52,984 bases of DNA. Source: Dirinaria sp. TL-2023a. Lineage: Eukaryota. The stretch covers positions 1-52,984 of the forward strand of contig JAVEBF010000018.1 of assembly GCA_051941275.1 (NCBI GenBank), written 5' to 3'. A program made the translations under genes and the position numbers. Below, piece by piece: positions 25,188 through 52,984 of the stretch; the first letter of the stretch is position 1; every line of letters begins with the position of its first letter. A model generated the notes under the pieces. The model had not been told where the DNA came from. It did not search any database and saw nothing but the letters and a program-made list of their open reading frames with translations.

Positions 25188-26983
25188 TATCCTCGCCACT
25201 GATGATGACAGCTTCTTCTGAAAGCTTGAATAACCCGAAGAGCGACTTGGACTGTGCTGTACATTTGAATTATGCTTGGTAGAATCGACTGCTTTCATGG
25301 CATTGAACTTGAAATTGCTAGATGGGTTGCGGTCGTTGTATACACCACAATGAGGCTATCAACGCGGAACATGCACGATTTACCTTTGCAATTTTGTGTG
25401 CCATGATTTCAGTCTAATGTTGCGGCCCCTCGCGCTCAGACCAAACGTATGAATAAGGGTATAGCAAGTCGTCATCCGCAACCCTAATTTTGGAAAATTT
25501 GCTGCTTTTTGTTAAGCCACGTGCAAAAGGCTTGCATCTGGGGGTCAACCTTCCAAAAAATGTCTATATTAGCGAGAATTACTGAAACGTGGAGTTCATC
25601 GTATCAGGCATGCAAATTTTGAGCGCTGAACCCATAGGCCAATGCGAAAGCTTCCTAGGGCCCTGGAGAAATTCGAGGTGCATCCCTCCAGCTGATTTTG
25701 GGACTGACATGGGCGCCAGGAAGGGACAGCATGAGGCCACGATGCTCATCCGGATCCTAAGAGGATTGTGCTATAAATCATCCTATGTTCTTGGTGCTGG
25801 CCATTTTGGTAATTCGGTAACCCGCAAGTATCACCACAGGCGAGCAAAGCCTCGTCCACGCATTCTCAAGGACAGGGTTCTTGACGGTGACCGGAGGTAA
25901 GAAGGTATATGTCATACCAGAAGAGCTCTCAGTAGCAGCCAATTCGGGGTTCTTCACGATTTTTTATCTACCGACGGAGTACTGAACGGGAGTGGGATCT
26001 CTTGCCAATCTCTCCGCGGTGTTTTGAGAAGTGAACGGAGTGCCGAACACCTTTCGCTCCTGCAACATCGGCAATGTCTGCTTGCTTCTCTTCGACATCG
26101 AAATTGACTTGAGCGCTGAAGATGCACGAGATCAGAGGAACTTGCCAGAAGATCGCTCCAGGATCTCCTCAAAAGTAAAGCGATTTTTAATACGAATGAT
26201 TGGTCGCCGCGAGAAGTTTTGCATCCAAGTGACGGCCGCTATGTGCCGAAAGATGGAGGCGGTCTTAAGCCAATGTGTGCTAAAATGCCACCTTGTTTTA
26301 GGCGTCTAAATAAAGATTCAAAAGCTTTTTGAGCGCTTCCACTGCGACGTCTAATGTCGGTTGAAAACGAGAAAGATGCTACGAGTATGAAGCTAAGGGG
26401 GTATTGTGGAAGTCACCGCCAAAGACGAGATGCTAGAGGCAAAATAAGACGATGGCAGTTGGTAAGCATTCGTTTCTTATCTGTCTTTGTAGGAAATGAA
26501 TCATTTACCGCAGCTTGTTCGCTGCATTGTTGAATGATGACTGCCAAGCAGGCGAGCGACGAAACGGCTCAAGTGCCGAGATCTCTGAACCAACTCTGAT
26601 TTAATGAAAGCTGCTATATCGGTCGTAGCGGGATAGAAATTCAATGGGTCTCGTTTGCTAGACTGCTTCACGTTGTCAGAGCATCTTGATCTTTGTGGAT
26701 GAGGAATAAGTCAATCGAATCACCAAGCTTAGGCGCCCCGAAGTCCGGCTTCAGGCCTCATTAAGGAGGTTCGGAATCTTCGAGCACTCCGGCTGACTAT
26801 TTAGTTGCTTCGGAGCTCAGACTCATGGAAGAATTTTGTGAGGAGTGCATATTTATGTATGTGTAGAGATTGTGTGTGTAGAGATTATGATTTATGAAGA
26901 AGGGTTAGGGCCGAGCAAAAATCTTCCATAAGCGAGGAATTTGCAACCCTAGATAGATTATAGATAGATTACTACCTGCCCAA

Positions 26984-29571: not shown

Positions 29572-32500
29572 ATGGAACAGGTGGAGACGATGCGCAACGG
29601 GGCTTCTGCTACCAAATCATCGTCAGTACAAGGTGCCAACGGCATGTCGAACGGTGTATTGTCCCGGAATGGGAGCTACAACCACGCAATTACTTCCCGT
29701 TGTAAGTAGGATTTCGACTCGATCATGCGGTCATATGTCTTATTGGAGTCGACTTTGCAGATTCCGATACTTATTCTGCTACGAAGTCTTTTACCGAGGA
29801 ACAACAAGTCACAGTGTTGCACGAGTCTGTCACAGTGACTCGGCGAAAGTTTCTCGCAGAAATCGGGGATGTGGAAGAGTCTTATATCGACGACATCACC
29901 ATTGAAGATTTCCTGGAATATATTGAACGGCAGCGCCTGACGCATATGCCACCCAGAGGAAGTCATTGGGACAAAGTCCTCAAATGGGCCGAATTCTTTG
30001 CATTCCAAATATCTGGATATGCCGCCGCTGTGGGCCCATTCGTACCCAACAGTAAGAATGCTGCCCAACTGATCTGGATAGCTTCAGAGTCGCTGTTAGA
30101 TGTGAGTTTTCCGCACATCACATAAAAAACTTGCTGATCCGTCCAAGCTCGGCCCGGATAACGCTCAGGCTCTCGAGACAACATTCGGAGTATTCTACCG
30201 CCTAGGTCTTTCCATCTCTATGCTCTTGCAAGATGGTGTCCTTCTATCCGCTAACAACCATGTCCGAACCGAGGTGGGCCAAGCCTTCAAGAGCCTCCTC
30301 ATAATGGTCCGTGAAGTCAGCCTCTACTATAAATCAAAGTCTCGTACTTCGATAGGACAGACCAGCTTCGACTTTAATGGCGTATTTGGTGGGCACATTT
30401 CAACATTTCACCAGCGCAAAAACCATATCCTCGATGCGATGTGGGAGTACAGCCTCGGAGACGAAGCAACCATGGAAGTCAAAGTTCTTCGAAAGTGGCT
30501 CGGTCCTCACGACTCTGGCTTGCAGAAGTTGTTAAAGGCGGACCACTCTGCACCCGGGGATCGGGACGAATATACGTGCGAATGGTTTCAAAGCCACCTG
30601 CTCTCCTTCTCGCGGAGTCAAAATGATATACTTGCTATCCACGGCGGCGCTGGCTGTGGCAAAAGTGTTTTGTGGAATTGGATCGTTGAGCGACTGCAGC
30701 GATCTCTCGGCAAAAAAGCTTATGTGACATTGTCTTGCACCATTGGTAAGTTTTCCCGGAATTTTTCATAACAAGGTACATCACCCTCTCTGGCATAGCA
30801 TTTCAATTCGAAGCTCTTGAATGCCGTGAGAGACTCAATCAGGAGTGAAAAAGTGGCTCCGGAACCAGTTAATTGTCCGGTAGAGCAAAGCGAGGTGCTT
30901 GTCATGGCATACAGGCTAGACGAGATACACTTTCCAGTTTAGCAAAGTACCAAGCGTGGGCTGGTTTCGTACTCGGATTAGACACATTATCGGTTGTCTT
31001 GTTTACAGCATTTTGCTTCTACCAATAACAAGAAATATACTAATTATTAGAATAGAGGCAGATATTCCCAGCGAAGCTACCCTAGTTGCGGTCATAAAAG
31101 GTCTGCTCTACCAACTGCTCGAGAACAACGTCGGCCACAAGAATTTCTACAAGGATCTAGTCAAGGCGTATTATGTGTCTATGGGTAATGACCATGAAGA
31201 GCTAGAAAAGAATATGTGGAACTGCTTGGAAAGTGGCCTCAAACACTTTCAGGAGACAAGTCAGGTGATGATTGTAGTGGATGGTCTTGACGAGATCCAT
31301 GGCGGCTTGAAGACGGCAAATGCCCTCTGCAAGAAATTGGCGTCGCTTGCGGTCAAATATCCAGGCGTCCAATTAATCACGATGTCACGTGATTCATCTT
31401 TGGACTTTGGCGGGGGTAAGACGCATCGTTTTGAGATTACTCCTGACCATACTCATGAGGATCTCCGCATCGTCATCGATCACTGCTTCCAGAAGTACAA
31501 GCATTTCCAAAACCGCAACGAACACGCGCGAGAGCACCTTGTCGATCAACTGCTTCACGCGGCTAAGGGAAATTTTCTTTGGGCCTTTTTAACCACAGTG
31601 TTGCTCAAGCGCGAAACTTCCGATGATGGGTTTAGCAAGGCAGTCAAGGCTGCTAAAGAGGCACCAATGTCGCTCGACGACACTATCGCTAAGTTACTTG
31701 GCATGGTAGACCTCGCCAAGGGAGATACCAATCTACTAGTATCTCTAGCACTGAATGCCGTTAGGCCGTTGACTCCAGCTGAATTGAGGTGCCTACTCGA
31801 GGTCGACCTTGCAAAGAGATACTCAGTAGAACGGAAGACGGATATGGTGCAGGATACCAAAGCGGCTTTGGATCCTCTGGTTGTTGTTAGAAACGGATTT
31901 ATTCGATTCTATCACTCGACAGTCAGGTCTTACGTGCTCAAGGTCCAAGCAGAAGGAAAAAGATTACGTAACGCCCACACTGCTTCAACAGAGATGGCCA
32001 AGAGACTGCTTGCCTATTGCAATTTTAACCTGTCGAGGACCCGGGACGTCACTTTCGACCCAATTGCAAAGTCTGAGGCCGAGAGGATGTTCTCCACACA
32101 TCCTCTACTGGAGTACGCCGTGCGTACTTGGACCTTCCACTTTCGGTCTTCGACAATGGGTCATAACGTGGATGCACTTCAGCTTGATGATGAATTCAGA
32201 AATATCTTCCCAAGCACTACGCAGCTGTCTCTGTTAGAATGGATATGCTGGGGATATATAACTTCTCGCGCAGAGGCTATCAAGATCATGGACCTCGCAC
32301 TGCGCGTCCGCACAGCTACCTTCTCAGAACACCATGTTGCGGTCCTTCAAACTCTGATCGCTTACGGTAATGTCTTGAGGGAGACCACACAGACGACAGC
32401 GGCTGCTGATTGCTTTTACCGGGCCTCTATCATCGGTCAAAAAGTGCTGCCCAAGTTCCATAATATCATCGCTGCGTGTACTACCACGTTCTTAGTCATC

Positions 32501-35500
32501 ACAGATGCAATTGCGTTGTCCTCAAGGACAGAACTCGCCACGCGACGAGAGAAAATGCTGATCTACACTATTGACATGTACAAGTACCAGCATGGCAAAA
32601 CACATGACCTCGTGATTCAGTTTTATAAGCAACTGGCACAGTTGTACGTCGATATTCACGAGGAGCATAGAGCCGAGACAGTTTGGCGCGAGCTACGTGA
32701 GACTGTCATTCTCCGGTTTGGTAAAGGATCCGAGGAAGAGATTCGTGTCTCTGAGTCTCTGACCCTCGTTCTTAAAGAAAAAGGGGACACAAAGACTGAT
32801 GTCATCGGGTATGAACAAGGCATCTTCGACATCGTTACCGAGCTTAAAGTATGGGACACTCGACGTATAAAGCTCACCATGGAGCTAGCAACGTCTTACG
32901 AATCACGCAGCGAATTTATCATGGCAGAGGAACTTTACATCTTCCTTTGGAGGCGGCTCACAGAAGAATGCCATCATCCTCATCAACATCATGGTGTTAA
33001 AATTCACATCCAATTGCTCGACGTTGTTATCGACTATGTAGAATTTCTTCGACGTCGCGGTCGACATGAAGAAGCATCCAATGTTCTGATCTGTATCTGG
33101 AGCGAGTATGAAGAATATGACTTCGAGTCCGAAGTTATTTTTCTTCGACTTCAAACGGTGGGAAAGCTCATGCGATCAGTAAGTCTGTTTTCTGTGGCAG
33201 TAACAGTTTTCAAGAAGTGCATCACCTGGTTCAAATCGCGTGAAATGCACGAGTACTTAACTTCATGCGAGGTCATGGTTTCCGAAACTATGGAAGAGGT
33301 TTATAGGTCTACGATAACGAACACGACAACCTCCACCACAGAAGTCGTCATCAAAGAAGCTTTCGAGAAAACGCTTTCCCGCAGCATTGTCACTACGGAA
33401 ACTATTTCCATCTGTAAAAGCCTGATTTCTCGGTACATGAAGCTGGAGCAGTGGTCTCTAGCTATAGAGGCCACGAGGAAATCGTTGCAGGTTATCTGGC
33501 GCTCCATCTTGACTTCGAGCGGAACCATCGCCTTGCCACAAAGCTTTGGGACTGACGCCATCGATATTGCGGTTAGCCTCGCTATTTGCTACCACCGGTC
33601 TCATTATTTCCACGAGACCGAACAAATCTACGTACATATCTACCGTGCGTGCCGCAACTCGTGCCGCATAGATGATCAACGCTTGAAGAAAGCTCACATG
33701 GATTTGATCGCATTTTACGAAGAGCACCGCTGCTGGCAGAAGATATTCGAGACCTACAGAGAATTGCTCAAAGAGTATCAGCGCCATTTGGGAGCTAGTC
33801 ATCATCTTACCATCCAAACATTGTACAAATTAGCATACCTCTGCGCTGACCATGGTTATGGCGATGCCGAAGAGTACTTCGAGGAGATTGTGACCGTGCT
33901 CAATCGCGGATCCCATCTCTGCCATCTAGATGCCCTGGATGCGATGATATTTCTCTGCCGATATGATTACGAAGCTGGCTTATGGCAGAAACTCCAAGGG
34001 GTGTGTAAAACACTGTGGGAAACTTGGAAAGGCCACCACCACAGCCAGAACAAATTCACGGCGGACTTTGTGGAAAAACTCTATTTCCGCTACCGCTATG
34101 TACTGGAACATCACGCTCGCTGCGAATATTCTGTTCTTCGTGAGTTGATCATCGAATACCGCAACACATGCGTGAAAGTATTTGGCGTTGCGGCGGCTAT
34201 CACGATCAGGTCGAAGATTGAGCTGGCCCAAATTTATATGCGAAACGAGAAGTACTACCATGAAGCAATCACAATCTTCGAGGAGGTCCTAACCCAGACC
34301 AAAACAACCACGACGACTATCGTGTCCACCACAACAATCACCACAGTGAAGCAACAGTTGACAAGGGCCTACACTACAGTCTGCAGCTACGACTCTGTAT
34401 CTGTTGCGACTGTTGAGCGGGCCATTGCAGTTGTAAGCGAAACGTATGAGTATTTGAGGCTAACCTACGGCTGGGCACATGCCGAAACACTCTCATCTCT
34501 TCGCGAGGTGCTCCTGCTTTGGAAAAAATCAAAAAAGCAAGACTCTTCTATTGTAGTGTCACGCTTGCTCCTTGAAGCGACTGTCCAAATTATCAACAAG
34601 GAGAGACATTCCCAGAGCTTGCATGAATCTGGCCGGACTATGGGTAACATATTCATCGCCTGCGGTATGAGTAGCCTGGCCCTTGAGTTGGTTCAGGAGA
34701 TACGCTCACAAATAATCACCGGAGCTGCTTCACATGACAACAAGCATGGCGTGAAGGTTGACAAGTCGGCTGGTGCCATGTCTTTCGTTTTCTTGGTGAC
34801 GCTTGAGCAGGCCATCCGTGGACCGTTAGCCGCCAGCTACTCTCAGGTCATGGCAGACTATCTCACAGAGAGCGTCTTGTATCAGTCCTATCATCATTCT
34901 CTCAACTCTACAGCCATCAACATCATTACCCACACCGCTCGCCTTCGGGCGTTCCTTTTGAGTCACCAGCGGCGCAGCCAGCGAGAAACTCTGGAAAACC
35001 ATTCCTACGACATCTTCGTCAAGAAATGGGCGATCAATGCTCGATCTCGAGAGATTGGCCTGCTTTTCTACGTTTCGTTGCTCGTCCAAATCGGCGAAAG
35101 CATTCGTGACGTGCAGATTGGGAACATTGCCTGCCTGTCAAGTGTCGCAGAGGTTCGTCGACTGCTCGAGTCGGGGCAAGTACAGAAGGCTTACGAGGTT
35201 GCCGAATGCGCTTTTGGCTTCATTGAACAAAATCGATCCTATCATTATTTGCAGAACGTTCCTCTAGGCTTCAAGCTGTCAGGACTCTTGGCTGGCCGGG
35301 ACTATGACCCCTCCAACCTCCCAACGACCGATCCCAAGCTACGCGAAATGAAGCTCGAGCTCTCTCGGAAGATAATCCATAGCGTGCTCAAAGCTTGCCA
35401 AGAATCGAAGATCGACTTCGTTCGGCTGAAGTTGAAGGAAATCAACGAGCTCGTCGAGCTATTGGGCGAACAGCAGAATTACGCAGATCTCGAGGTAAGT

Positions 35501-36466
35501 CCTTCTCCCTATTATCAGCGCTGGTCATCTTCTTGATCCTCCCCTTTCTCCACTCGCAAGTTATCCAAAACCGTCCGCTAACGAGAACACCAGTGGATCC
35601 TCGAGCTGCTTTGGAAGTCGCGCGAAGTGCAAAAGACCTGGAAAGCCGACACCATTATCGCCATAGGCCGGCGCTTTGTGCAAGCGCGCTATCTCAACGC
35701 ATCCAAAGAGCGTCAATCCGAGGCCATCCGTCTCTGCGAAGACATCTGCTACAACATGCGACGAACATGGGGCTCCCTGCACCCGAAAGCGCTGGAAATG
35801 AACAACCTGCTCTCGGAACTCTACACCAACATGGGCCACACACGCGAGGCGCAGGGCGTGCACGAAGACATCTTGCGCCTCGTGGTCGAAGGCGAAGACG
35901 GCGACGACCGCACGCTCGACACCACCGATTCCGATACGGCGCTGCGCCAGATTGCGCTGCTGAAACAAACCTTCCTGCGTCTCGGCGGCTGGGACAAATC
36001 CCGCGATGTGTACGACAGCCTCGTGTCCGACCTCAAGAAGATGCCCGAGTACAGTTCCATCAAGGAATGGAAGTCGCTCGCCTTACCCAGCTCATGGAAC
36101 CCCAAGGAACCGCCCTCGAAAACCGAGGGCAGGTTCGTCGCGCCGACGTATTGGCAGTTCATAGGGCCTCAGGAGCAGGAGGAGGAAGAAGAGGTGCGCC
36201 GTGTCGCTGCGTCGCCCAAGCAGCCCGCTTCGTCGCCGCGTCATAACCAGAAGCATCACAGGCCGGGCATGGGCGTGAAGAGGGCGACGAGTAATTGGGG
36301 TCTGGGGCTCGTGCATAAATTCATGCATGGAGATCATGGACATGCGCAGAACAATAACATTGACGGTGCTGGCTCGCCGAAAATGAATGGGAAGAAGACC
36401 GCCGGGAAAAGGGTTTCCAATGTGGTGGATGATGAGGATGGGTATGAGAGTGCGAAGAGCTCGTGA
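29572..36466 (+). CDS. Large NACHT-type STAND NTPase with long TPR-like helical C-terminus (NLR-like), ~2126 aa, 5 exons
   Basis: Exons 29572-29701, 29761-30101, 30148-30745, 31056-35494 and 35594-36466 total 6381 nt in frame. Pre-P-loop 'TCEWF', Walker A GGAGCGKS, Walker B MIVVDGLDE, 'AKGNFLWA' and 'RPLT..EL' winged-helix motifs are present. TPR-like repeats include 'LGASHHLTIQTLYKLA' and 'GSLHPKALEMNNLLSELY'. Confidence 0.9.
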
Positions 36467-41629: not shown

Positions 41630-42658
41630 TTAGAATTTGCGTTTCGTGGCTGTAGTCTTTTTTGCATCTGCGGCACTTTGGTCGACGAGGAACTTTTCTA
41701 TAGTAGCGCGTCCGTGAGCCAGCTCTGTTTCGTTCAAGACCCGCGCAGTCTTTTCCCCGATCAACGTTGGTAGGTAAGGGGTATGTTGAACGATTGACGC
41801 AAACACTCCGTAAGTAAAACGGAAGTATCTTTTTTCGGTTTCTTTCGCCAGATCAGAAATACTCTCATAGCTCGAGGTCCAACACTTGGACATAATATCT
41901 CCGAGCTCGACCTCAGTGGTAGAAGGTACAAAACGAGGATCATCAGACACACCCCAATCATACTCTGTCCCGGTGAACAGCTCCCAAAGGGTGTTACCGA
42001 TACCAAACAGATCGTGCTTTGGTCCGCAACAGGTGTCGTACCAGACCCAAGCAGGCGCTACATTGAGCACGGGAACCTCGCCGTAGCGGCTCAACGTGTC
42101 GAAGTCTCCAAGCTTGACCTGTTCTTTGCAGTCGATGAATGTATTAGCTGGTCTGATATCGCAGTGTGCGAGCTTCAAACTTTCAAGGGACGTAGCGGCG
42201 CCGGCAAGCTCTTTTGTCCATCGATACTTTACTTGAAGGTTGATCTGATTTTCTTTGGCCGCAATGATCAGATCTTTGAGATTCGTCAGCATTCGAGGCA
42301 GGAATATGCCTTCCGCTGTAGACATAAAGCTCTGGAGTCTATGTGGATGAGGTGTGGCATCGAGAAATGAGTACCATGTTTTCTCATCTGCTATATTCTC
42401 CCTTGATTGCTTGGCATCAAGGAGGAAGAATGGTGGTATTTTATTGTCAGCCTCAGCTTTGTATCTGTGTGGGGTTTTGAGTACCACAAGATCATTGATG
42501 CGATGAACAAAGCTGCTGCCTCCGTAGCCCAAAAGTGTGTCGTCTGATAAACACTCAAAAGGATCTATATTTGCAATCGACAAATAAGTTGGTCGAATAC
42601 TGTGTATGTTCTGCATTGCTCTGTATTTACGCAACGAGCAATGTGACAATCTTTTCAT
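41630..42658 (-). CDS. Atypical intronless protein kinase-like protein (342 aa; start may be the downstream Met, MQNIH)
   Basis: Gly loop LGYGGSSFV, beta-3 Lys VVLKTP, alphaC 'IADEK', catalytic loop HCDIRPAN, metal motif LGDFD, alphaF 'HDLFGIGNTLWELFTG' and 'IMSKCW'. Confidence 0.85.
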   Translation of the reverse strand: MKRLSHCSLRKYRAMQNIHSIRPTYLSIANIDPFECLSDDTLLGYGGSSFVHRINDLVVLKTPHRYKAEADNKIPPFFLLDAKQSRENIADEKTWYSFLDATPHPHRLQSFMSTAEGIFLPRMLTNLKDLIIAAKENQINLQVKYRWTKELAGAATSLESLKLAHCDIRPANTFIDCKEQVKLGDFDTLSRYGEVPVLNVAPAWVWYDTCCGPKHDLFGIGNTLWELFTGTEYDWGVSDDPRFVPSTTEVELGDIMSKCWTSSYESISDLAKETEKRYFRFTYGVFASIVQHTPYLPTLIGEKTARVLNETELAHGRATIEKFLVDQSAADAKKTTATKRKF

Positions 42659-43862: not shown

Positions 43863-45235
43863 TCAAGCATTTGTAGGCTTCAGTGGACAACCAAAGTCTT
43901 TAAAAATCGGGTTCAGTTTCCCTGCCACCCAGTCCACGACCTGGAGCGGCAGATTTAGCACGCCGCTTAAGCTAGTAGGCGTGGCTTCAGTCGCCAGTTG
44001 ATAGATCAGGCACAGAACATTTTGCTGGGTCGCATCCAGTGCCCCGTTTTTGATCGGGCCAAAGCTCAACGCATCGAAATCTCCTTTCGCGATATTGCCC
44101 CCGAAGAGGACTGGATGTTCACCGTACAGCGATAAAATCTCTACGGCCACGTCGACAAGCGAGTAGGGTGTTTTGCGATTATACCAATTCGGTGGAATCT
44201 GCTCCTTGTTGTTGAACTTCCACCCTCCATTTCCGTCGCTTTCAGCACCAAAGAAGGATTCCATGGTCGCGAGATCGGGGTTTCCTGCATCTCCGAATGA
44301 AGGGAAAAGCTCGTATAGAAACGAGGCTGCGCCAAATATTAAGACACTAATGGGGCCGAAAAAAAAATTGGCGTTGTCGGCTAGGGATTGTTGATAGCGC
44401 TGGTAGCGGTACAATGCTAGGTTGTCCCGGTTGAAGTTGCCTTGACAGGTGTTGGCCATCATGCCGAAGAGCGTACCGTTAAAAGAATGGTCATCCCCAT
44501 TGGCGAGAAAGTAGTCGTTGCGGGTAAGAGACGTATCTTCCTCAAACTTCTATAGGGCTTTTAGTAGTATTCTTACAATGTACTAAACGAACAGGAGTGA
44601 GATGAAATGTAAGGGTAAGGGTAGTAAGGGCCTTTGGATGTCTTTAGGAAGAAAGAAGATTGGAAACAGCTTACATTGTGGCCATTGAGACCAAGTTCAT
44701 CTCCGAGAAGAGATCCTGTAGCAGACGTCCTACTGGTCGCGTCGCATCCGATTGAGAGCTTGCCTGTAACTACATCACCGTCAATGCCCACACCAAGTGT
44801 AGCCAATGTAACAGCAAGATCGTAGCCAACATTATACAAGTTTTGTTGGGCATCAATGAGTTCCGTAAAATTGGTGATGCCGTCATGGCTAAGGAAGTGA
44901 TGGTCGGCCGCCGTGTTTAAGCCAGGACATGGACCACGGATGTCGTTGGGTCCTGCAGCTTCGAAAGCGTGCGCAGTATCGCCATCAGCAGGGACCTTGA
45001 TGCCTCCAATGCCCGTGCCTGGGAGCCCATTCTTTGCTCCTGTATAAGGGTATTTCGAGTCATATGGGGCAGCCCCTTTGTGATTTGAGTTGAAAGGACA
45101 GCTGGATTGACGCCGATGATTGGGTGATCGTTTGGTATTGCGAAGGGCCGACGAGTCGACACCGGGCATCTGGGAAATGAAAGGGAAAGCCGTAGTAGTA
45201 GCCGTCATAACGGCTACCAGTAATAGAAGAAGCAT
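43863..45235 (-). CDS. Secreted heme-thiolate peroxidase (unspecific peroxygenase/chloroperoxidase family, long type), ~415 aa, 2 exons
   Basis: Exons 45235-44675 and 44549-43863. Signal peptide and pro-region ending in KR/RR. Proximal heme ligand motif RGPCPGLN, 'HNKFEEDTSLTRND', 'EQIPPNWYNR' and two C-terminal Cys. Confidence 0.92.
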
Positions 45236-45270: not shown

Positions 45271-47444
45271 GATAGGGCGCTAGTGATAGTAATTAGCAGA
45301 ATGCTGACCTTCAGAACCAACCTACTTTGACACTGAGAATCTGCAGCTTTATAAAGAGATCAGGCGTGGCGATGCCGAGATATGGCCCGATTGGCGGCAG
45401 TGGTCAGAATTCTGGTTGCAACTGAGTTGATCGCGCCTCCAAATGCACTTCGGAGGTAGGACAGAAACTCAGTTCCATGTTTGCACGTAATTCGGATTAC
45501 TGTCATGCCAGTGATTGGACGAAACACCTGCCAGCCGAAGCCATTGGGTAAATGTAAGGAGCGACTCATAATTGAGGATGACGATCGACAGCGCTAATTC
45601 GATTCAGTCCATGAGCCGGAGATGATGCCATTTGCGGAAGCATTGGCTCGTCGGAGGTGCCGAAGTAACGAGACCTAATGAATATCGTTACTGGATTGAG
45701 ATAGCTCAACTCTAGGTACCTAGATACTTAAATTGGTGAGCCACACAGAGGAATTTCCCCACAGGTTTGCTTGTCTCGCTTGCTTTTTCGGGACCAATCA
45801 ATGCTTCGTCGGTGTAAGGAAGATCTCCCCTGCCTGGCTATGTGGCTTTCGAAGCCATATAGTCTAAAAAATCCGTGGATCGAATCGTCAAGTGCAATTT
45901 TCTGCAGCGAGTTCTTGGCTGTGGATTTCACGTAATCTTATTTGTTCCAAGCGTCGGCACCCAGATGCGGGTGCCTACCTCTTAGCTCCAGGGCGGCTCG
46001 AGCGGGCGAGCTCGGGATGTCCCGTGTGTGGTGTGCCCTTGGTGCCGCTGATCAGTTCTCGCCGCGCCAAGCTTTAACGCGAAGCCTGATCCCGGTGCTG
46101 CTCGCTTCAAAGTATGTGGCTACAGTAAGATTCTGTGAGACGTAATAAAGGACCTTCCATTACCTGTGGGGCTCTCTACGCACACAGCTATTTCGTATCT
46201 CGGCCCGAGTTCAAGAGAGAAGCGTCATTCTATGCCAGAGTATTTGACAGAGAGCAGCACGTAACTCAGCAGCTCACCTCCGCTTGGAGCTCGATAAAAT
46301 GAATCGCATACTCCAACACTTTCGGCTGACAATTATCCCAGTAGTCTCATTACACTGCTATCTTTCAGCTGATGGCGCTTGAACAATTGAAAATCATTAT
46401 GAGGCATTGACTCCGACCGGAATTTGGTCCATACGCCTTGGCTGATAGATCACTCCGTGAGTATAGGCCGAAGGCTGAAAAGCTTTGCTAATGATCCTGA
46501 ACCCATCCGCTAAGCCTCCGTAGACCTGCTACTTGACTTAAATGATATGCCGATAGCTTTGACCCGTTTTGTTTGCAATGATGTCAAAAAGATACAAATT
46601 TCTCGTCGTAAGAGACTTCAAACGTTTCCAACTGTGTTCTTGGAGGCAAACTTGGACATAGGACAAGGTTCCATTCCATAACTTTGCAGTAGCAGAGCAA
46701 TCGTAGCAATCTTCTTGAACTAGGAGCATCATCACAAGGACTGACGGTCCTTTACGCAAGAGGCAGCGTTTCCAATGATGGAAGAACATTCAATATATCT
46801 GGTCGGAATGGTTGTTGTCTTGTTCTTTCTGTCAGCGACCAGGCGCAAAATGGGATGACTGCAACTCAAGACTCTCGAATATCAAGCATTGCTGCTGTTG
46901 TTGAGGGTCACTCGAGCCGTGGTTAGCTGGAGGGCCGGTCTCGTTTGCTTGTCACCCGTTTCTCCCCGGCTTCAATTATGCTTGAGCTTTGCGTAGCAAA
47001 AAAGTCCGAGTCAGGGGTTCTTGAACGTCTGTAGTATACCGTCACAAATTCGAGCCTTGGATCATCGAATAAGATAACGCCTTGTGACTATATGTAAGCA
47101 TTTTGTAGAATTAGTAGTCAGGGGATCGTTTAAAGGTTAAAGAATGGCTTGATGGACTGGAAAAGACAACTCATCATACTGGGAATATATCATGATATTA
47201 TAGCCATCGCATGCATTACCGCACATTGACATTTCTATGATTCTATGAGTGGAAGTACTTGGGTTCTAGTATCAATACATGTACAAGATTTCACAACGGT
47301 AAAAGTTGCAGCCAAACCAGTAGCACTAGACTGTGCCCAAGGAATTGTTTCTGATAGAAATTGGGGTTCAGGGGTCAATTTTCGCTTAGAAAGTCCTGAT
47401 AAGATAAGTGTTGTAATTTAAAGGTTAAATAGTGGAATAAAGAA

Positions 47445-47788
47445 GGCTCGGCTACCGGTCCAGGAGCAATGGTCGAGTGGAAAACACCACTGTTTGAAAT
47501 CGAAAGCATCGCCCTTAACCCGGCGTAACCGAGTATGAAAGTAGGCTTCCATTGCACACCGGTCCCATGGGTTGAAAGTCCCTAAAGTAATGACCCCTTC
47601 GGGGTATCCCTTGGCCTACCCTCGAGGGCATGATTAACCAAGCTGATGATGAGATGCTCGCTGCAGACCTCTTCGGATCCCCAACGGGCAAGAGGCACCT
47701 CAGTAAGCCAGTGTGGCCGCACCATCCGTTACTTTTTGCATTTCGAAAGGTTCTGAGTTCGAACCCCCCTGGGACCCAAATCTTTTTT
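47445..47788 (+). ncRNA. Candidate structured non-coding RNA (identity unknown)
   Basis: Many nested helices, a UUCG tetraloop hairpin, A-box-like TGGTCGAGTGG, B-box-like GTTCGAAC and a T6 run at 47783-47788. See findings. Confidence 0.45.
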
Positions 47789-49785
47789 ATTTAGCGAGTT
47801 TTCTCTCAACAACACCCATACCACATCTGCTGGACATTAATTTTATTTTTCCCCCCCACCCCCTTTTTAGCCCAAGCAGACTCTCAAGGGAATTCTCGGT
47901 ATTCCCAAATGCTGTCAAGCACCCCACTCCAAAACCACCCGAACTGACACTTTCTGTGGGCGCGTGAGCATAGCTTGCAACGCATCTTGGGTTGATTCAT
48001 CAACTAGACTTTAACCCTCTTCCATTTTCACAACGCGCGCAATGTACGGTATCCATCCTGGCTGCTCTACAGGGCCAAAGAGATCTTACTCTTAGTTCGC
48101 AGCCATAACGATGGACCAATCAACAACACTGTCGGTCTGAATATGCATCGCACTTGGGCTTTGACATGCGGTTGCAAGACTTCAGTAGGGGAGCTGATTT
48201 GCCCTACGTCCCTTTAGCACTGGCTAATCATTGTCTTCTTCATCTTCTAGCTGCTTGAACTGAGGAGCCTAGAGAGAGCTAGACATCTACAGCCCTTACC
48301 GAGAAGCATTCCAGCGTATCCGCTTGCACGTCGTGCTCATTATACGGCTCAGTATACAAATATTAAGAGAGTTTACCACGTCTTCTTCTCCCGGCAAGAG
48401 ATGCTTTGATACCATCGATCAGTATAAATGCAAGAGAAATCTTCGAAAGTCAGCAAGATGAAGCAGGATGACTGCGATACATAATGCATGGGCCAGAGGA
48501 GGAAGCAACAGACGTGATCTGGAAGAGCGATGGGATGATGGAAGAGACTCACAAAGGTCTCACTGTGCAGCTCAGCCTCCCCGCCCGCAACAAGTGAAAC
48601 CTCGAGGATACATACGGCCTCTCGTTACCGCAGTTTCTATGCGACTACGAAAGGAAACATATTTCTCTGCCATACGAGCCACTTTAGGCACCTGCAAATT
48701 AGCAGAAGCCCATTCATCCGTGGACGAGATGGAGTTCTCACAAGCTTCTTAGTCATCGGGCTTGGCAGGCTTCGAAGGCGCAAGCGCCGGCCTCCCTGAC
48801 GGCGACGTTCCCTTTGCCTCAAGCTGGAAGAAACACTACCTAATTCCTTCTCATCTTCACTACAACACGCAAAGGTCAAAGCGCTTACAAGGCTTGACTA
48901 GCTATGACTGCCCGAGGCTGTGGTTTTCTCAAATTACTGCTCTAAGGAATGGGGAGTTCTAATTGCTGACGCGCACCCCCCGGCTCGCCATAACGATTTT
49001 CTTGGACATACATAGAGCTGGCTAGTCCCTCATTTCTCTATATGGATGAAGGCTGATTACATGGCCTCGATTCAATGACCACAGAAACTGTGCCAAGACC
49101 TTTTTCGACAATTGAACCTTCAGTGCCGAATTCCATTGCATCGTGCACATGCATCATGTGGGAGCTGGAAGCGAACTTCAAGTACTCACGAAAGAAAGTA
49201 GGATTTACATCTGATATGCTCGAAACTGCTAAGCCGTAGAATATGTTTTTATTGGCCTATTTGCTCTAAACCATAGCAGACTCCCATCGGAGTACGGAAC
49301 TAAAGTCGCTAATGATAAATGTGCTTCCGATCTCCAGAATAGATAGGTAACCACTCCCACTAGCAAATTTCTATTCGACAGGCACACTACCCTCCTAAAC
49401 ATAAACAATTCGACCTTCTGACAGTGGCGCTTTGGTGGTAATTCAGTCCATCATCGCTTCGTTGAATCATTTATGCTTAGAAACCCCATTCTGTAAGAAC
49501 AAGGAAATGGACGGATTGAACCCCGAAGCATCAAAAAGCGGGAGACATTGATAGGTGAAAACGAGTAGGGGGACGGCCTCGTGACAGCAAAGTCAGGGTA
49601 GTGTGGCGCTAGAGGGGTTCACTTTAGATGAAGTAATAGCCAAAAGCGCCAATCCCTGACTCATCCGCCAAGAACAGACTCTAAGGGAGCATCCTTCCTC
49701 CCTTCTCACTTCTTTCTTTAGATACCATGAAGCTCTAGTGAGGAAGGCCTGACAGACCTATCGCGACTTACAATCCTGAAATGAG

Positions 49786-50026
49786 ATGTTTCAATGCAAA
49801 TGCTCTCTCCTATTCAAGGCCACTAATGCTGGTCTCGCTCCTCTCTTCTCTTTTCTTCTTTTTTTCCTTTAAGCATTTGTATAGTAAGCATAATTACTCT
49901 AAGAATTTTATTATACCAAAAACCAATTACAATCATTTGCACTTTTGCTTTTGCCTTTCATTGAACACGGTTAGTTTTGCCGCTTGGGGCAAAACTTTGC
50001 CCAAGAAAATGGGGGACAGGCTGGCC
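49786..50026 (+). repeat. Dispersed direct repeat, copy A
   Basis: ATGTTTCAATGCAAATGCTCT...pyrimidine tract...TATAGTAA-N6-TTACTCTA...GGTTAGTTTTGCCGCTTGGGGCAAAACTTTGCCCAA...GCTGGCC. Aligns by eye with 51537-51769 and 52736-52984. Confidence 0.85.
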
Positions 50027-51536
50027 GGGGCTTTCCCTACGGCTATTATTATTTGGAGCTTAGAGAAGTGGTGTTAAGGCATCTATCCATCCTCACAGCA
50101 CAAAGCCTGATCTTGCTGGCACATATCTGACGATCCTTCAGGAAAGCCAGGCAAAGCTCCCGACCGGCTGCCCAGCGGGCAATTGAGAGGCAGTGTCGGT
50201 GCGAACAGCACCCGGCGTCTGCCCCCGTTGCCGGTGGAGGGTTTTCCAAGGCGCACAAAGGCCGCTATGTCTTCTTTGTGCGCCTTGGAAGGGGGCGTGA
50301 AGGCTCAATGCTTCACGCCTTCGAGCACTACTCTTAAGCTCACTCAGACACAACCGCTGGGCAACGTTCCCCGCAAAGATACTGAAAAGGAAAATAAAAA
50401 TAAACCCCCCGTTGTATAATCAATAAGGCTTTTCGATGTCTTCCGAACCACCATGGTCATTCTAGTATCACTGAGCAGTACCCTGCGAATAAACCCAGCG
50501 ACGTTTCTGGCTGCCAGTGGGTCTTTAGGAACACGTTCAGCTCGCTTGGCAGCAATATCTGGCAGTCCTTCAAGCATTCACAAGGTATGGCTCTTTAGAT
50601 GCAACTCTGCCGAACCTCTCAACTCTTGATCATTCGTTTGCTCACATCTTCACAAAAGGGGATACTGATGCTTTGGCAGCTTCCACTTGGGACGAGGACG
50701 ACAATGCAAGCCGTGATCAAACACGCAGAATATCATTGGCCCACTTGCACAGTTGAGGGCTACACGCCTACAATACTATGAGGCTGATACCTGGCGTGGG
50801 TGTGGTGGGCGCAAAATATCCTTCCGAAGTGCAACTTGGACACAATTGAGGAAGCTTAGAGAGGAGATGCGAGGACCTCATATACCTCGCTGGATTACTT
50901 CTACGGGCCTTGATGGCACTTTCGACCGCCCCGGAATATCACAAGTGCTACTGGGTGCTCAGTGACACCTAGATATGGCGTAGACTGTGAGGAGATGCCT
51001 CAACACTGCATATCTGCGACCCTAGACTCACTCAAGGTCAGAGTAGACACGTGGCATCAAGAATGACTCCCTTTGTCAACCTAGGAAAAGTCATCGGACA
51101 CTTACGCAACTCCGCGGCACCCTGCTTCCAAACCACTAGGAACGTAGGCCTGATCCTCAATCCTATCTTATGCTCGCCTCAAATATAATTCGATCCTGAT
51201 ATAATCTTGTAGCGTTGATATCCTCTATAAGCACTAGGCAATCAAGATGGACAACTGCTTGCGAAATGCTAATGACATCAGACACTGTGTCAACCCCTGA
51301 CCATAGGACTCACTTTCCGGTGTCCAGCACCAGAGATGCCTGATATCAACCACGAATTGAGCATGACGATATTCTCTTTAGGTGAAGGCAATCACAACAC
51401 ACGAATATCTTGGAGTCGGCGCCTAGCAATGGAAGAATTCCTTTTCAGCAACTGTATTTTGAACAACGAGACACATCAAATTATGGTTGAGTCATAGGTT
51501 ATTGTTATTGAGGCACGTCTCTCTAGAGTAAATGGA

Positions 51537-51769
51537 ATGTTTCAATGCAAATGCTCTTTGCCATTCAAGGCCATTGTTGCTGGTCTCGCTCTTCTCTTCG
51601 CTTTTCTTCTTTTTTTTCCTCCAAGCATTTTTATAGTAAACATACTTACTATAACAATTTCATTATACCTCCAACAACAACAATCATTTGCACATTTCTT
51701 TTATTCAACATGGTTAGTTTTGCCGCTTGGGGTAAAACTTTGCCCAAAAAAGGGGGGGACGAGCTGGCC
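51537..51769 (+). repeat. Dispersed direct repeat, copy B
   Basis: Same blocks and order as copy A: identical ATGTTTCAATGCAAATGCTCT start, ACAATCATTTGCAC and GGTTAGTTTTGCCGCTTGGGG. Confidence 0.85.
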
Positions 51770-52735
51770 AGGAATCTTCCGGCTGCTTTTCTCCTAGCTC
51801 TTCTTAATTGTATAACAAATCGCTGTGGTTCATGTACAGAATACTTTTCATAGCTTGAGAATAAGACGCAGATTACACTAGAGAGGTCTTTAGGTCAACG
51901 AGGTTACCTACTTTTGAACTGTCTGTTCCTTCTCTCTGATCTGGGTACTCTTCCTCGAAATCCTTCCAAATGCTTTTCTCACCAAAGTAGCATTGATGTC
52001 CCAATTGAGCTCTGATGAGAGCATGCGATAAATCTTGAGCACGAAAAAAGAGAGCTGACTGTCAATGTAAGTTGTTGTCTCCATCATGGAGACTTTTTAC
52101 TGATTGATCTTTATATTATAATTGAACACCAACAGCTTGTTCATAATCTACGGTGATAGCCTTTCTTAATATCGTTGGCACTGAAATGCTCTTCCTCGTA
52201 ATATTCTCAGCGTAATGACAAGACAATGTTGACCGCTAAAGACTCTGCTGTCAACTGAACATGCGACACTTAAGGTTAGCCCACCCAGTACAAAGGAGTT
52301 CTGTCTCAAGAGTGAGCGGAGGAGAATGCGGCGTCAAATATGTAAGTTAATTGAAACCAAGGATGGAGAGAATATTTATATTTTACTGCTAAAGCCAATC
52401 GACACATCTGATAGTCTCCGAAGCCTACTAAGGAACACTTTCAGAGCAATAGGCCTACGGATGAATTTATAGATATCTTGAGTAAATATTCTACCTGAGC
52501 ACGCATAACGCCTACTAGTCGCCCTCAAATACTTCTCTACTAGCTAAGTCCATGTCTGAGGATATATTGAGCTTCCAGAGAGAGCCGAAGATTCAGCGAG
52601 CAATAAGAGGAGATTAGGGACTACTAGAGTCCTGGCACTTACAGAAAGTTGCAAGTAATCGGGAAGGTACCATAGACAAGCGCCTGCCCAGAAGGCTCGA
52701 AACAGATATCATTGCGACTTCCAACGCTGGGGAAA

Positions 52736-52984
52736 GTGTTTCAAGGCAAGTGCTCTCCCGTTCGAGGCTCTTATGGCTGATCTCGCTCATCTCATCTCTC
52801 CTCTTCTTTTTTTTCCTCTCTTCACGCATTGATATAGTAAGTTTACTTTACTATAGCATAACTTATTGCAACATATCATCACAACCCACAACGCTCGCTG
52901 TTTTATTTTTTTTTTTCCACATTTATTTTTGCATTTTTATTTAAAAATGCCTTTTTATTTTTCCTTTTTCGCAAAGGTGGGGGA
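52736..52984 (+). repeat. Dispersed direct repeat, copy C (more diverged, runs to the window end)
   Basis: GTGTTTCAAGGCAAGTGCTCT...GCTGATCTCGCTC...pyrimidine tract...GCATT..TATAGTAA-N7-TTACTATA...TGGGGGA. Confidence 0.7.

Follow-up and report, generated by a model that had tools for sequence, protein, structure and literature searches.

The contig JAVEBF010000018.1 of Dirinaria sp. TL-2023a (assembly GCA_051941275.1), analyzed over 52,984 nt of its forward strand (hereafter the window), contains a 344-nt element (47445-47788) that carries an A-box-like motif, a B-box-like motif and a run of six T in this order, together with two stable helices and an interior of low divergence. These features tentatively point to a single-copy, narrow-lineage unit of the RNA polymerase III (Pol III) type, similar to a transfer RNA (tRNA) gene with its type 2 promoter, or to a decaying relic of such a unit. 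The element is not an RNase P or RNase MRP RNA, as the initial annotation of the region had considered, and could at best be the small-RNA gene of a narrow lineage or a relic of tRNA-like type in decay.

The Pol III-like motifs are at chance level one by one, and only their ordered combination is unusual. A-box-like sites with at most one mismatch occur 18 times in the window against 17.7 expected and B-box-like sites 13 times against 8.7, while runs of at least six T number ten on the + strand. An A-box-like site followed 30-400 nt on by a B-box-like site, and 5-60 nt beyond that by T6, is found once in the window, at the element; block-shuffled windows contain 0.005 such sets on average (both strands, 200 shuffles). 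In type 2 Pol III units the A box, the B box and the T-run follow one another in this order. The 3' end of the element also resembles the end of a tRNA gene, with a T-loop-like TTCGAAC, five C, TGGGACC, one base, AAATC and TTTTTT, and the TGGGACC pairs at all seven positions with GGTCCCA 200 nt upstream.

Relatives of the element are represented by assembled contigs of four public runs, three from one sample (X1 and X3, which are RNA runs, and X4, also RNA) and one from another study (X5, its kind guessed as DNA). The X1/X3/X4 relative is 95-99% identical to the window and the X5 relative 90-95%. The 1030-nt X1 contig, aligned over 47318-48200, shows 25 substitutions and two single-base gaps; seven of the 26 listed differences fall in the element and none in the interior block 47568-47752, a difference-free run of 185 nt with a scanning P of 0.046. 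The X5 relative, which covers 47448-47690, differs at 10 of 120 positions before 47568 and at 2 of 123 after it (Fisher 0.018). The features of the element are collected in Table 1.

Table 1. Features of the element and its upstream border. Pair probabilities are means over the unconstrained ensemble; z compares folding energy with shuffled sequence; MFE, minimum free energy.
Feature	Position	Strand	Remark
TATA-like AT-rich TTTAAAGGTTAAATAG	47417-47432	+	about 15-30 nt before the proposed start; putative TFIIIB/TBP site
5' domain	47445-47560	+	irregular hairpin region holding the A-box-like motif; z +0.27
GGCTCGG/CTGAGTT	47445-47451/47753-47759	+	7/7 pairs, three of them G-T; mean pair probability 0.00
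ACCGGT/ACCGGT	47454-47459/47558-47563	+	6/6 pairs; mean pair probability 0.00
GCAATGG/CCATTGC	47466-47472/47549-47555	+	7/7 pairs; mean pair probability 0.20
A-box-like TGGTCGAGTGG	47470-47480	+	10/11 to TRGCNNAGTGG
Closed domain, 216 nt	47561-47776	+	closed by 7-bp GGTCCCA/TGGGACC; z -1.52, 8% of shuffles fold as well
GGTCCCA/TGGGACC	47561-47567/47770-47776	+	7/7 pairs; mean pair probability 0.99
Interior block	47568-47752	+	0/185 differences from X1; 26/698 elsewhere in the aligned 883 nt
GGGTTGAAAGTCCC	47569-47582	+	small hairpin with GAAA-containing loop, or 5'P4 (CR-I)-like GAAAGTCCC
GTCCC/GGGAC	47578-47582/47771-47775	+	5/5 pairs; mean pair probability 0.00
Long arm	47584-47735	+	9-bp helix around a multi-branch junction; present in the MFE structure; arm alone z -0.64
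AAAGTAATG/CGTTACTTT	47584-47592/47727-47735	+	9/9 pairs; mean pair probability 0.99
Long-arm hairpins	within 47584-47735	+	ACCCC-TTCG-GGGT; CTTGG..CCAAG; TGAGATGC..GCACCTCA around CCTCTT/AAGAGG; GCCA-GTG-TGGC
Internal T5 run	47733-47737	+	possible premature Pol III stop
B-box/T-loop-like GAGTTCGAACC	47755-47765	+	AGTTCGAACCC 10/11 to GGTTCGANNCC; contains GTTCGAAC (47757-47764)
T6 run	47783-47788	+	6 nt past the closing helix; Pol III terminator-like; same in the X1 and X3 contigs

If the element is a unit of this type, TFIIIC would be expected to bind the B-box-like and A-box-like motifs and TFIIIB the AT-rich stretch upstream. Pol III would start near 47445-55 and stop at the T6 run, and some stopping at the internal T5 run is possible. 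The predicted product of about 290-345 nt would consist of a loosely structured, fast-evolving 5' part and the 216-nt domain closed by GGTCCCA/TGGGACC, which would leave over a short U-ended tail. Many Pol III RNAs share this layout of a closed domain with a short U-ended tail. Protein binding, transcript ends and any function are all predicted here from the letters, and the element may have no function. Variously spaced A and B boxes are tolerated by TFIIIC, as the portion of the literature drawn on here states in general terms (PMC4490372). The neighborhood of the signals contains similar sequence: the TATA-like stretch (TTTAAAGGTTAAA.., 47417-47435) has a 19-nt look-alike 290 nt upstream (47129-47147), and the A-box region (47473-47491) has one at 47153-47171 that matches at 15 of 19 positions. 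A diverged upstream duplicate of the element was considered and set aside, its local alignment score of 43 being not above chance (shuffles 34.4 +/- 5.9, maximum 65).

Observations on spacing, folding, sequence change, transcripts and tRNA likeness weigh against the Pol III reading and are given in this and the next paragraphs. Each motif taken singly is at chance frequency, and the ordered triple was noticed after the fact, among very many windows scanned. The A box (47470) and the B box (47755) lie about 275 nt apart, which is far over tRNA-gene spacing, and the T5 run comes before the B box; in box spacing and in having an internal T-run the element thus departs from a type 2 unit, which lacks a strong internal terminator. 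The + strand has an MFE of -104.0 kcal/mol, and dinucleotide-shuffled versions have -104.2 +/- 6.1 (z 0.03), with 59 of 100 shuffles folding as well or better; a second set of 150 shuffles gave z -0.18. Sub-regions of the + strand range from z +0.69 to z -1.52, and the conserved interior is at +0.63.

The helices and motifs of the initial annotation, the 12-mer at 47569-47580 among them, were all recovered at their positions, every helix fully complementary, yet its description of the element as densely base-paired does not hold, and the comparison with dinucleotide-shuffled controls that it had proposed leaves the element no better than chance. Lists of complementary segments mean dense pairing only if shuffled controls are beaten. 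Moreover, the listed helices cannot all coexist, because they share or cross strands: the ACCGGT and GGTCCCA helices overlap by 3 nt, in the 3' strand of the first and the 5' strand of the second, GGCTCGG/CTGAGTT crosses GGTCCCA/TGGGACC, and GTCCC/GGGAC competes with GGTCCCA/TGGGACC for one 3' strand. Forcing the four nested outer helices of the initial annotation gives -89.9 kcal/mol instead of -104.0, a cost of 14 kcal/mol. Folding of the minus strand is somewhat more stable than that of shuffles, with z of -1.91 and -2.04 over its full length and of -2.4 and -2.8 over the 5' domain. An element on that strand was rejected; it is without ordered Pol III-like signals, and the z values come from several sub-windows tried.

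The pattern of change among relatives is also unfavorable in several respects. The 5' domain, which holds the A box, changes fastest, with 10 of the 12 X5 differences and five of the seven X1 differences in the element, and X5 inserts an A behind 47479, inside the A-box-like motif. A two-sided compensatory change is found in none of the 14 distinct differences of the relatives, and 47753 C>G disrupts a pair both in the GGCTCGG/CTGAGTT helix and in a GGTTC/GAACC hairpin. Of the other changes, 47456 C>T keeps its pair as G-T, those at 47515, 47519 and 47520 are in the loop of a CGCC/GGCG hairpin, a deletion at 47594 leaves a CCC-TTCG-GGG hairpin, and a deletion at 47567 takes away the last pair of the closing helix. 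Taken together, the differences neither support nor refute a conserved fold. Separately, about 130 nt upstream of the element, the X1 relative has 19 different letters in place of 81 nt (47237-47317), which is an indel polymorphism.

Nearly as likely as a Pol III unit is the view that nothing discrete is present and that the short motifs and complementary segments of ordinary intergenic DNA in a gene-poor region have been over-read, the contigs of the RNA runs representing background transcription or library DNA. The + strand z values fit this view, as do the single-motif frequencies, a search without Rfam matches, homologues confined to near-identical relatives and an X1 contig that spans 47318-48200 as one aligned piece. 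The element overall is not more conserved in X1 than its flanks (differences at 7 of 344 positions vs 19 of 539, Fisher 0.23). Within the X1 alignment the left half (47318-47752) changes more slowly in general, with 7 differences in 435 nt vs 19 in the 448 nt of the right half, so the difference-free interior may not be special. Over-reading is harder to reconcile with the rarity of the ordered triple, with the scanning P of the 185-nt run, with the independent X5 contrast and with the enrichment of small motifs: GAAAG occurs four times in the element vs 0.62 per 344 nt window-wide (at least four in only 8 of 2106 sliding 344-nt windows), GAAA six times vs 2.1 and TTCG four times vs 1.6. The GAAAG copies begin at 47502, 47537, 47574 and 47745, and two of them read TCGAAAG.

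Contigs of RNA runs hold the element, and they cannot reveal strand, ends or level; RNA libraries can also contain DNA. The X1 contig covers 47209-47236 and 47318-48200, with both flanks unbroken, and extends past the end of the interval compared; X3 contigs, which come from this sample too, are tiled over that span, unbroken as far as 47889. Since these contigs run through both ends of the element, they do not delimit a discrete transcript, which is a further point against a Pol III unit. A longer transcript of about 1 kb and carried-over DNA are equally compatible with the RNA-run contigs. The X4 contig (175 nt, 47440-47615) and the X5 contig (246 nt, on 47448-47690 from its sixth letter) both start near the proposed 5' end. 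This hint of a transcript start or repeat boundary was set aside because the contigs of these runs are short throughout, other RNA contigs of the sample continue and stretches without cover carry no evidence.

It is unlikely that the element belongs to an RNA polymerase II transcript with a length of about 1 kb or more, for example to an untranslated region or a non-coding RNA, in which T6 is no terminator and the boxes are irrelevant. The single 1030-nt X1 contig that spans the region and the tiling X3 contigs would agree with such a transcript, as would an end-to-end helix of nine pairs and one bulge that 47445-54 could form with 47792-47800, beyond T6. Against it are the limits of the contigs just mentioned, the Pol III-like triple, which it leaves unaccounted for, and a surrounding tract with no adjoining coding gene, in which the longest frame of 45300-52984 has 111 amino acids and 23 of 24 small frames are Pfam-negative.

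Searches with the covariance models of Rfam 15 were made at gathering score over the whole window and at E<=10 on sub-regions. At gathering score there are no matches in the window. At E<=10, 47350-47900 gave only SAM-III (E 8.3) and SNORD48 (E 3.5), which are noise; 47555-47790 gave three box-C/D matches driven by UGAUGA (SNORD48 E 1.5, sR10 E 2.6, sR41 E 6.7); 47430-47570 gave only HOTTIP_3 at 5.4 bits; and 46800-48800 gave only sR19, outside the element. The models for signal recognition particle RNA, tRNA, U3, small nuclear RNAs, telomerase RNA, introns and ribozymes match neither in the window nor in the sub-regions. The identity with a known family that the initial annotation had proposed to look for was thus not found at gathering score or, beyond noise, at E<=10. 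Three particular families were considered and rejected. The box C/D small nucleolar RNA matches are UGAUGA-driven noise, and the CUGA at 47753 is altered in the relative. For a hammerhead ribozyme CUGAUGA is present, with GUAA where the core requires GAAA, and Rfam gives no match. For telomerase RNA the element has only CCCTAA, and the three AACCCTAA sites of the window are at 25-28 kb. These sites, the complement of the TTAGGG telomere repeat, lie on the + strand at 25480, 27022 and 28303, within 2.8 kb; 1.1 are expected per window and at least three occur in 6 of 100 shuffles.

Tests for a tRNA tell against the Pol III reading as well. ARAGORN finds no tRNA genes in the window, and none with introns allowed, at the default and at the 90% threshold; lowering the threshold to 80% and 70% yields two and three calls in 600 nt, respectively, all of them poor cloverleaves. 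Constructs in which every internal segment between 47480-47569 and 47685-47760 was removed give no tRNA in any of 6840 cases, and the same procedure at 12 control loci likewise gave none. There is also no Rfam tRNA match at E<=10 around the element.

It is improbable that only the final 80-90 nt (about 47697-47788) form a feature, a badly decayed tRNA pseudogene with an A-box-like motif, T-loop, acceptor strand and T6 of its own, and that the upstream 250 nt are unrelated. A weak A-box-like AAGCCAGTGTGG does lie about 48 nt before the B box, which would give the two boxes and the T-run the spacing of a tRNA gene, and at 70% ARAGORN draws an 81-nt cloverleaf on 47697-47777. This call is noise-level, being one of three in 600 nt and absent at the default and 90% thresholds, and the cloverleaf has only two paired T-stem positions and a single D-arm pair. 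The Rfam tRNA model is silent on this segment too at E<=10, and a pseudogene would leave the strongly predicted GGTCCCA/TGGGACC helix unexplained. Somewhat less doubtful, and still rather unlikely, is a narrow-lineage Pol III structured RNA of about 220-345 nt that was built on a former tRNA gene, has a new multi-branched interior of 185 nt and is without an Rfam relative. What such an RNA would have retained of the tRNA gene is its A box and B box/T-loop, together with the acceptor-like closing helix and the T-run.

By blastn the window contains one copy of the element, the next best match being 19 nt long (E 0.23). Each of the runs X1, X4 and X5 contributes one contig to it, and no contig was placed at a second site of the window. 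No homologues beyond the relatives from the two lichen studies, and none suited to an analysis of covariation, were found in metagenome, prokaryote, viral or protein searches, which counts against a Pol III unit as well. A metagenome scan with a 22-mer from the invariant part (three open positions) gave 13 loci, which were judged chance matches because the blastn alignment of four of them is confined to the 22-31 nt at the pattern, while nine do not align. Exact interior 25- and 29-mers have no matches in prokaryote genome contigs or in viral contigs, protein-space searches return only the near-identical relative, and searches of literature text for AGNNNNAU, UUGAAAGUC and TTGAAAGTCC gave nothing relevant. 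A tRNA-derived short interspersed element (SINE) was rejected, as the element is single copy in the window and has no A-rich tail and no clear target-site duplication; the direct repeat ACCGGTCC (47454-61 and 47558-65) was set aside as such a duplication, about 0.5 repeats of this kind being expected by chance (an estimate). Of the earlier suggestion of a tRNA-derived Pol III RNA or SINE, what stands as the best remaining option is the single-copy unit; the SINE falls away, and so does likeness to a tRNA by ARAGORN and Rfam.

The suggestion that the element is a diverged paralogue of RNase P/MRP RNA, in which GAAAGTCCC would be CR-I and GGGAC would supply the 3' strand of P4, was not sustained and is close to refuted. 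Its appeal comes from the order of the element (a long hairpin, a motif and a helix enclosing hairpins), which recalls P3, CR-I, P7/P5 and the S-domain. In addition, AGTTCGAA fits an A-G-4N-A pattern like that of RNase P CR-IV. The published motifs used to search for RNase MRP RNA, as far as the source consulted gives them, are gaaAGuCCCC for 5'P4 and acnnnanGGGGCUnannnu for 3'P4, separated by 80-500 nt; the loosest criteria tolerate up to two deviations or a single pairing violation (PMC1796607). Here, GAAAGTCCCT (47574-83) matches the 5'P4 consensus at 9 of 10 positions. The 9-mer GAAAGTCCC occurs once in the window vs 0.49 expected, and at least once in 39 of 100 shuffles. A 3'P4 partner was sought within 60-900 nt downstream, where the best sites, 542 and 753 nt away, deviate at 3 of the 11 specified positions, and inside the element, where the best site deviates at 5 of 11. 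In random 840-nt stretches, 300 of which were drawn from the window, the best site deviates at 2-4 positions; the best 3'P4-like sites therefore equal the null, and there is no 3'P4 partner.

The pairing proposed in the initial annotation, a P4-type pseudoknot of GTCCC with GGGAC, is complementary at five of five positions, and this part of the claim stands; its ensemble probability is 0.00, it competes with a stronger helix, and it pairs the U that the P4 consensus leaves unpaired (lower case in gaaAGuCCCC; PMC1796607, in the part used). No complement of GTCCC other than GGGAC was found in the element, and the pairing leaves two A before the G unpaired. In the excerpts relied on, conserved marks of MRP RNA are a 3-bp P5 adjoining CR-I, a GARAR pentaloop on P8 and a 6-nt CR-IV (PMC13184271), CR-IV being given as AnAGUnA, 0-3 nt ahead of 3'P2 (PMC1796607). 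In the element a 9-bp helix, not a 3-bp one, begins 1 nt past the CCC. No GARAR pentaloop is found at the P8 position, as the initial annotation had rightly remarked; the loop of the first hairpin enclosed by the 9-bp helix is TTCG, and the four GAAAG copies never form a pentaloop there. The same sources (PMC1796607; PMC13184271), so far as used, report the GARAR motif missing in some ascomycetes, and its absence alone is weak evidence. AAAGTAA (47584-90) and TCAGTAA (47700-06) resemble AnAGUnA and precede no 3'P2, and no 3' strands of P1 or P2 are found between the supposed P4 3' strand and T6.

Nuclear RNase P RNA, in the description available from PMC13184271, has a P4 pseudoknot of CR-I, CR-IV and CR-V and an S-domain with the CR-II/III T-loops. 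The bulge of the inner long arm of the element is one-sided and 10 nt long and hence has no CR-III side. The RNase_MRP and RNaseP models of Rfam 15 have no match at gathering score in the whole window and, with lax filters at E<=10, none on 47350-47900, 47555-47790 or 46800-48800 (inputs of 236 to 2001 nt); on 47430-47570 there is likewise none at E<=10. Taken together, a CR-I 9-mer and a plausible helix order are chance-level evidence for RNase P/MRP.

Coding content was excluded over the element as far as sequence comparison allows. No Pfam match at E<=1 was found for 23 of the 24 stop-to-stop frames in 46538-48962, and the remaining frame has sub-threshold matches only. The 91-amino-acid minus-strand frame has a single protein match, which comes from a 1030-nt contig resembling the near-identical relative; the 134-amino-acid open reading frame (ORF) of that relative matches the frame at 68 of 73 residues of the central part and differs at both ends, the places of its single-base deletions (47567 and 47764). 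A protein search with the + strand frame was without any match. These results support the absence of a protein frame conserved over the element, in agreement with the earlier statement that no protein frame explains it.

The genes of the window are fungal in type, as judged by the Pfam families on its frames. Peroxidase_2 is found in two adjacent minus-strand frames, 43863-44462 (E 1e-9) and 44573-45235 (E 7e-22), presumably one gene of the heme-thiolate peroxidase type split across two frames by an intron, and a protein kinase domain is found in the frame 41630-42658 (E 2e-8). The largest frame of the window, 30920-35533 on the + strand, runs uninterrupted for 1538 amino acids. The public runs that contain 31-mers of the window are five, from two studies, every one labelled lichen metagenome, and the source fungus is probably lichen-associated. 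The element is located within a non-coding, ORF-poor tract of about 7.7 kb that reaches from 45300 to the window end, and no stop-to-stop frame of 150 or more amino acids is found there. This tract is unusually long for a fungus, yet its GC content resembles that of the gene-bearing part, GC being even, at 0.44-0.52. The tract also holds a repeat of about 120-250 bp in three same-strand copies within 3 kb (49779-50029, 51530-51772 and 52737-52858; 75-83% identity), each under a stop-to-stop frame of 108-111 amino acids (49742-50077, 51527-51853 and 52618-52944). Two of these three frames are without a Pfam family, and the translation of 49742-50077 looks non-protein-like.

The element can be compared with several known systems. 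It shares with tRNA genes A- and B-box-like motifs at 10 of 11 positions each, TTCGAAC, a 7-bp acceptor-like helix, a short trailer and T6; unlike them, it has boxes about 275 nt apart and no cloverleaf, the low-threshold ARAGORN drawing having two T-stem pairs. The yeast genes RPR1, SNR52 and SCR1 are non-tRNA genes driven by tRNA-like promoter elements, and ZOD1 and the ETC sites are relics of tRNA genes that are still bound by the Pol III machinery. The element is like these in its A/B-box-type signals on non-tRNA or decayed tRNA sequence and in its single copy. In the three yeast genes, by contrast, the boxes are close together, in the leader or near the 5' end, whereas the B box of the element is at its 3' end. 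Fungal SINEs such as Mg-SINE and Foxy have a similar length (about 300-470 nt) and a Pol III A/B-box head; the element differs from them in being single copy in the window, in having no A-rich tail and in having its boxes at opposite ends. RNase MRP RNA (RF00030) is similar in length (about 340 nt) and, in the parts of the sources used, in having GAAAGTCCC after a long 5' hairpin and then a helix enclosing hairpins (PMC1796607, PMC13184271), but the element is without the 3'P4 strand in its GGGGCU context, the unpaired P4 U, the GARAR on P8 and the 3' strands of P1 and P2. Nuclear RNase P RNA (RF00009) has a similar helix order, and the 8-nt AGTTCGAA could be read as its CR-IV, whereas the element has no Rfam match, no CR-II/III internal loop and no P4 pseudoknot partner.

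If the Pol III reading is correct, the element would be a rare documented case, in a filamentous or lichen-forming fungus, of a non-tRNA small RNA under tRNA-type promoter elements, and it would provide an entry point to the roles of lineage-specific Pol III RNAs.

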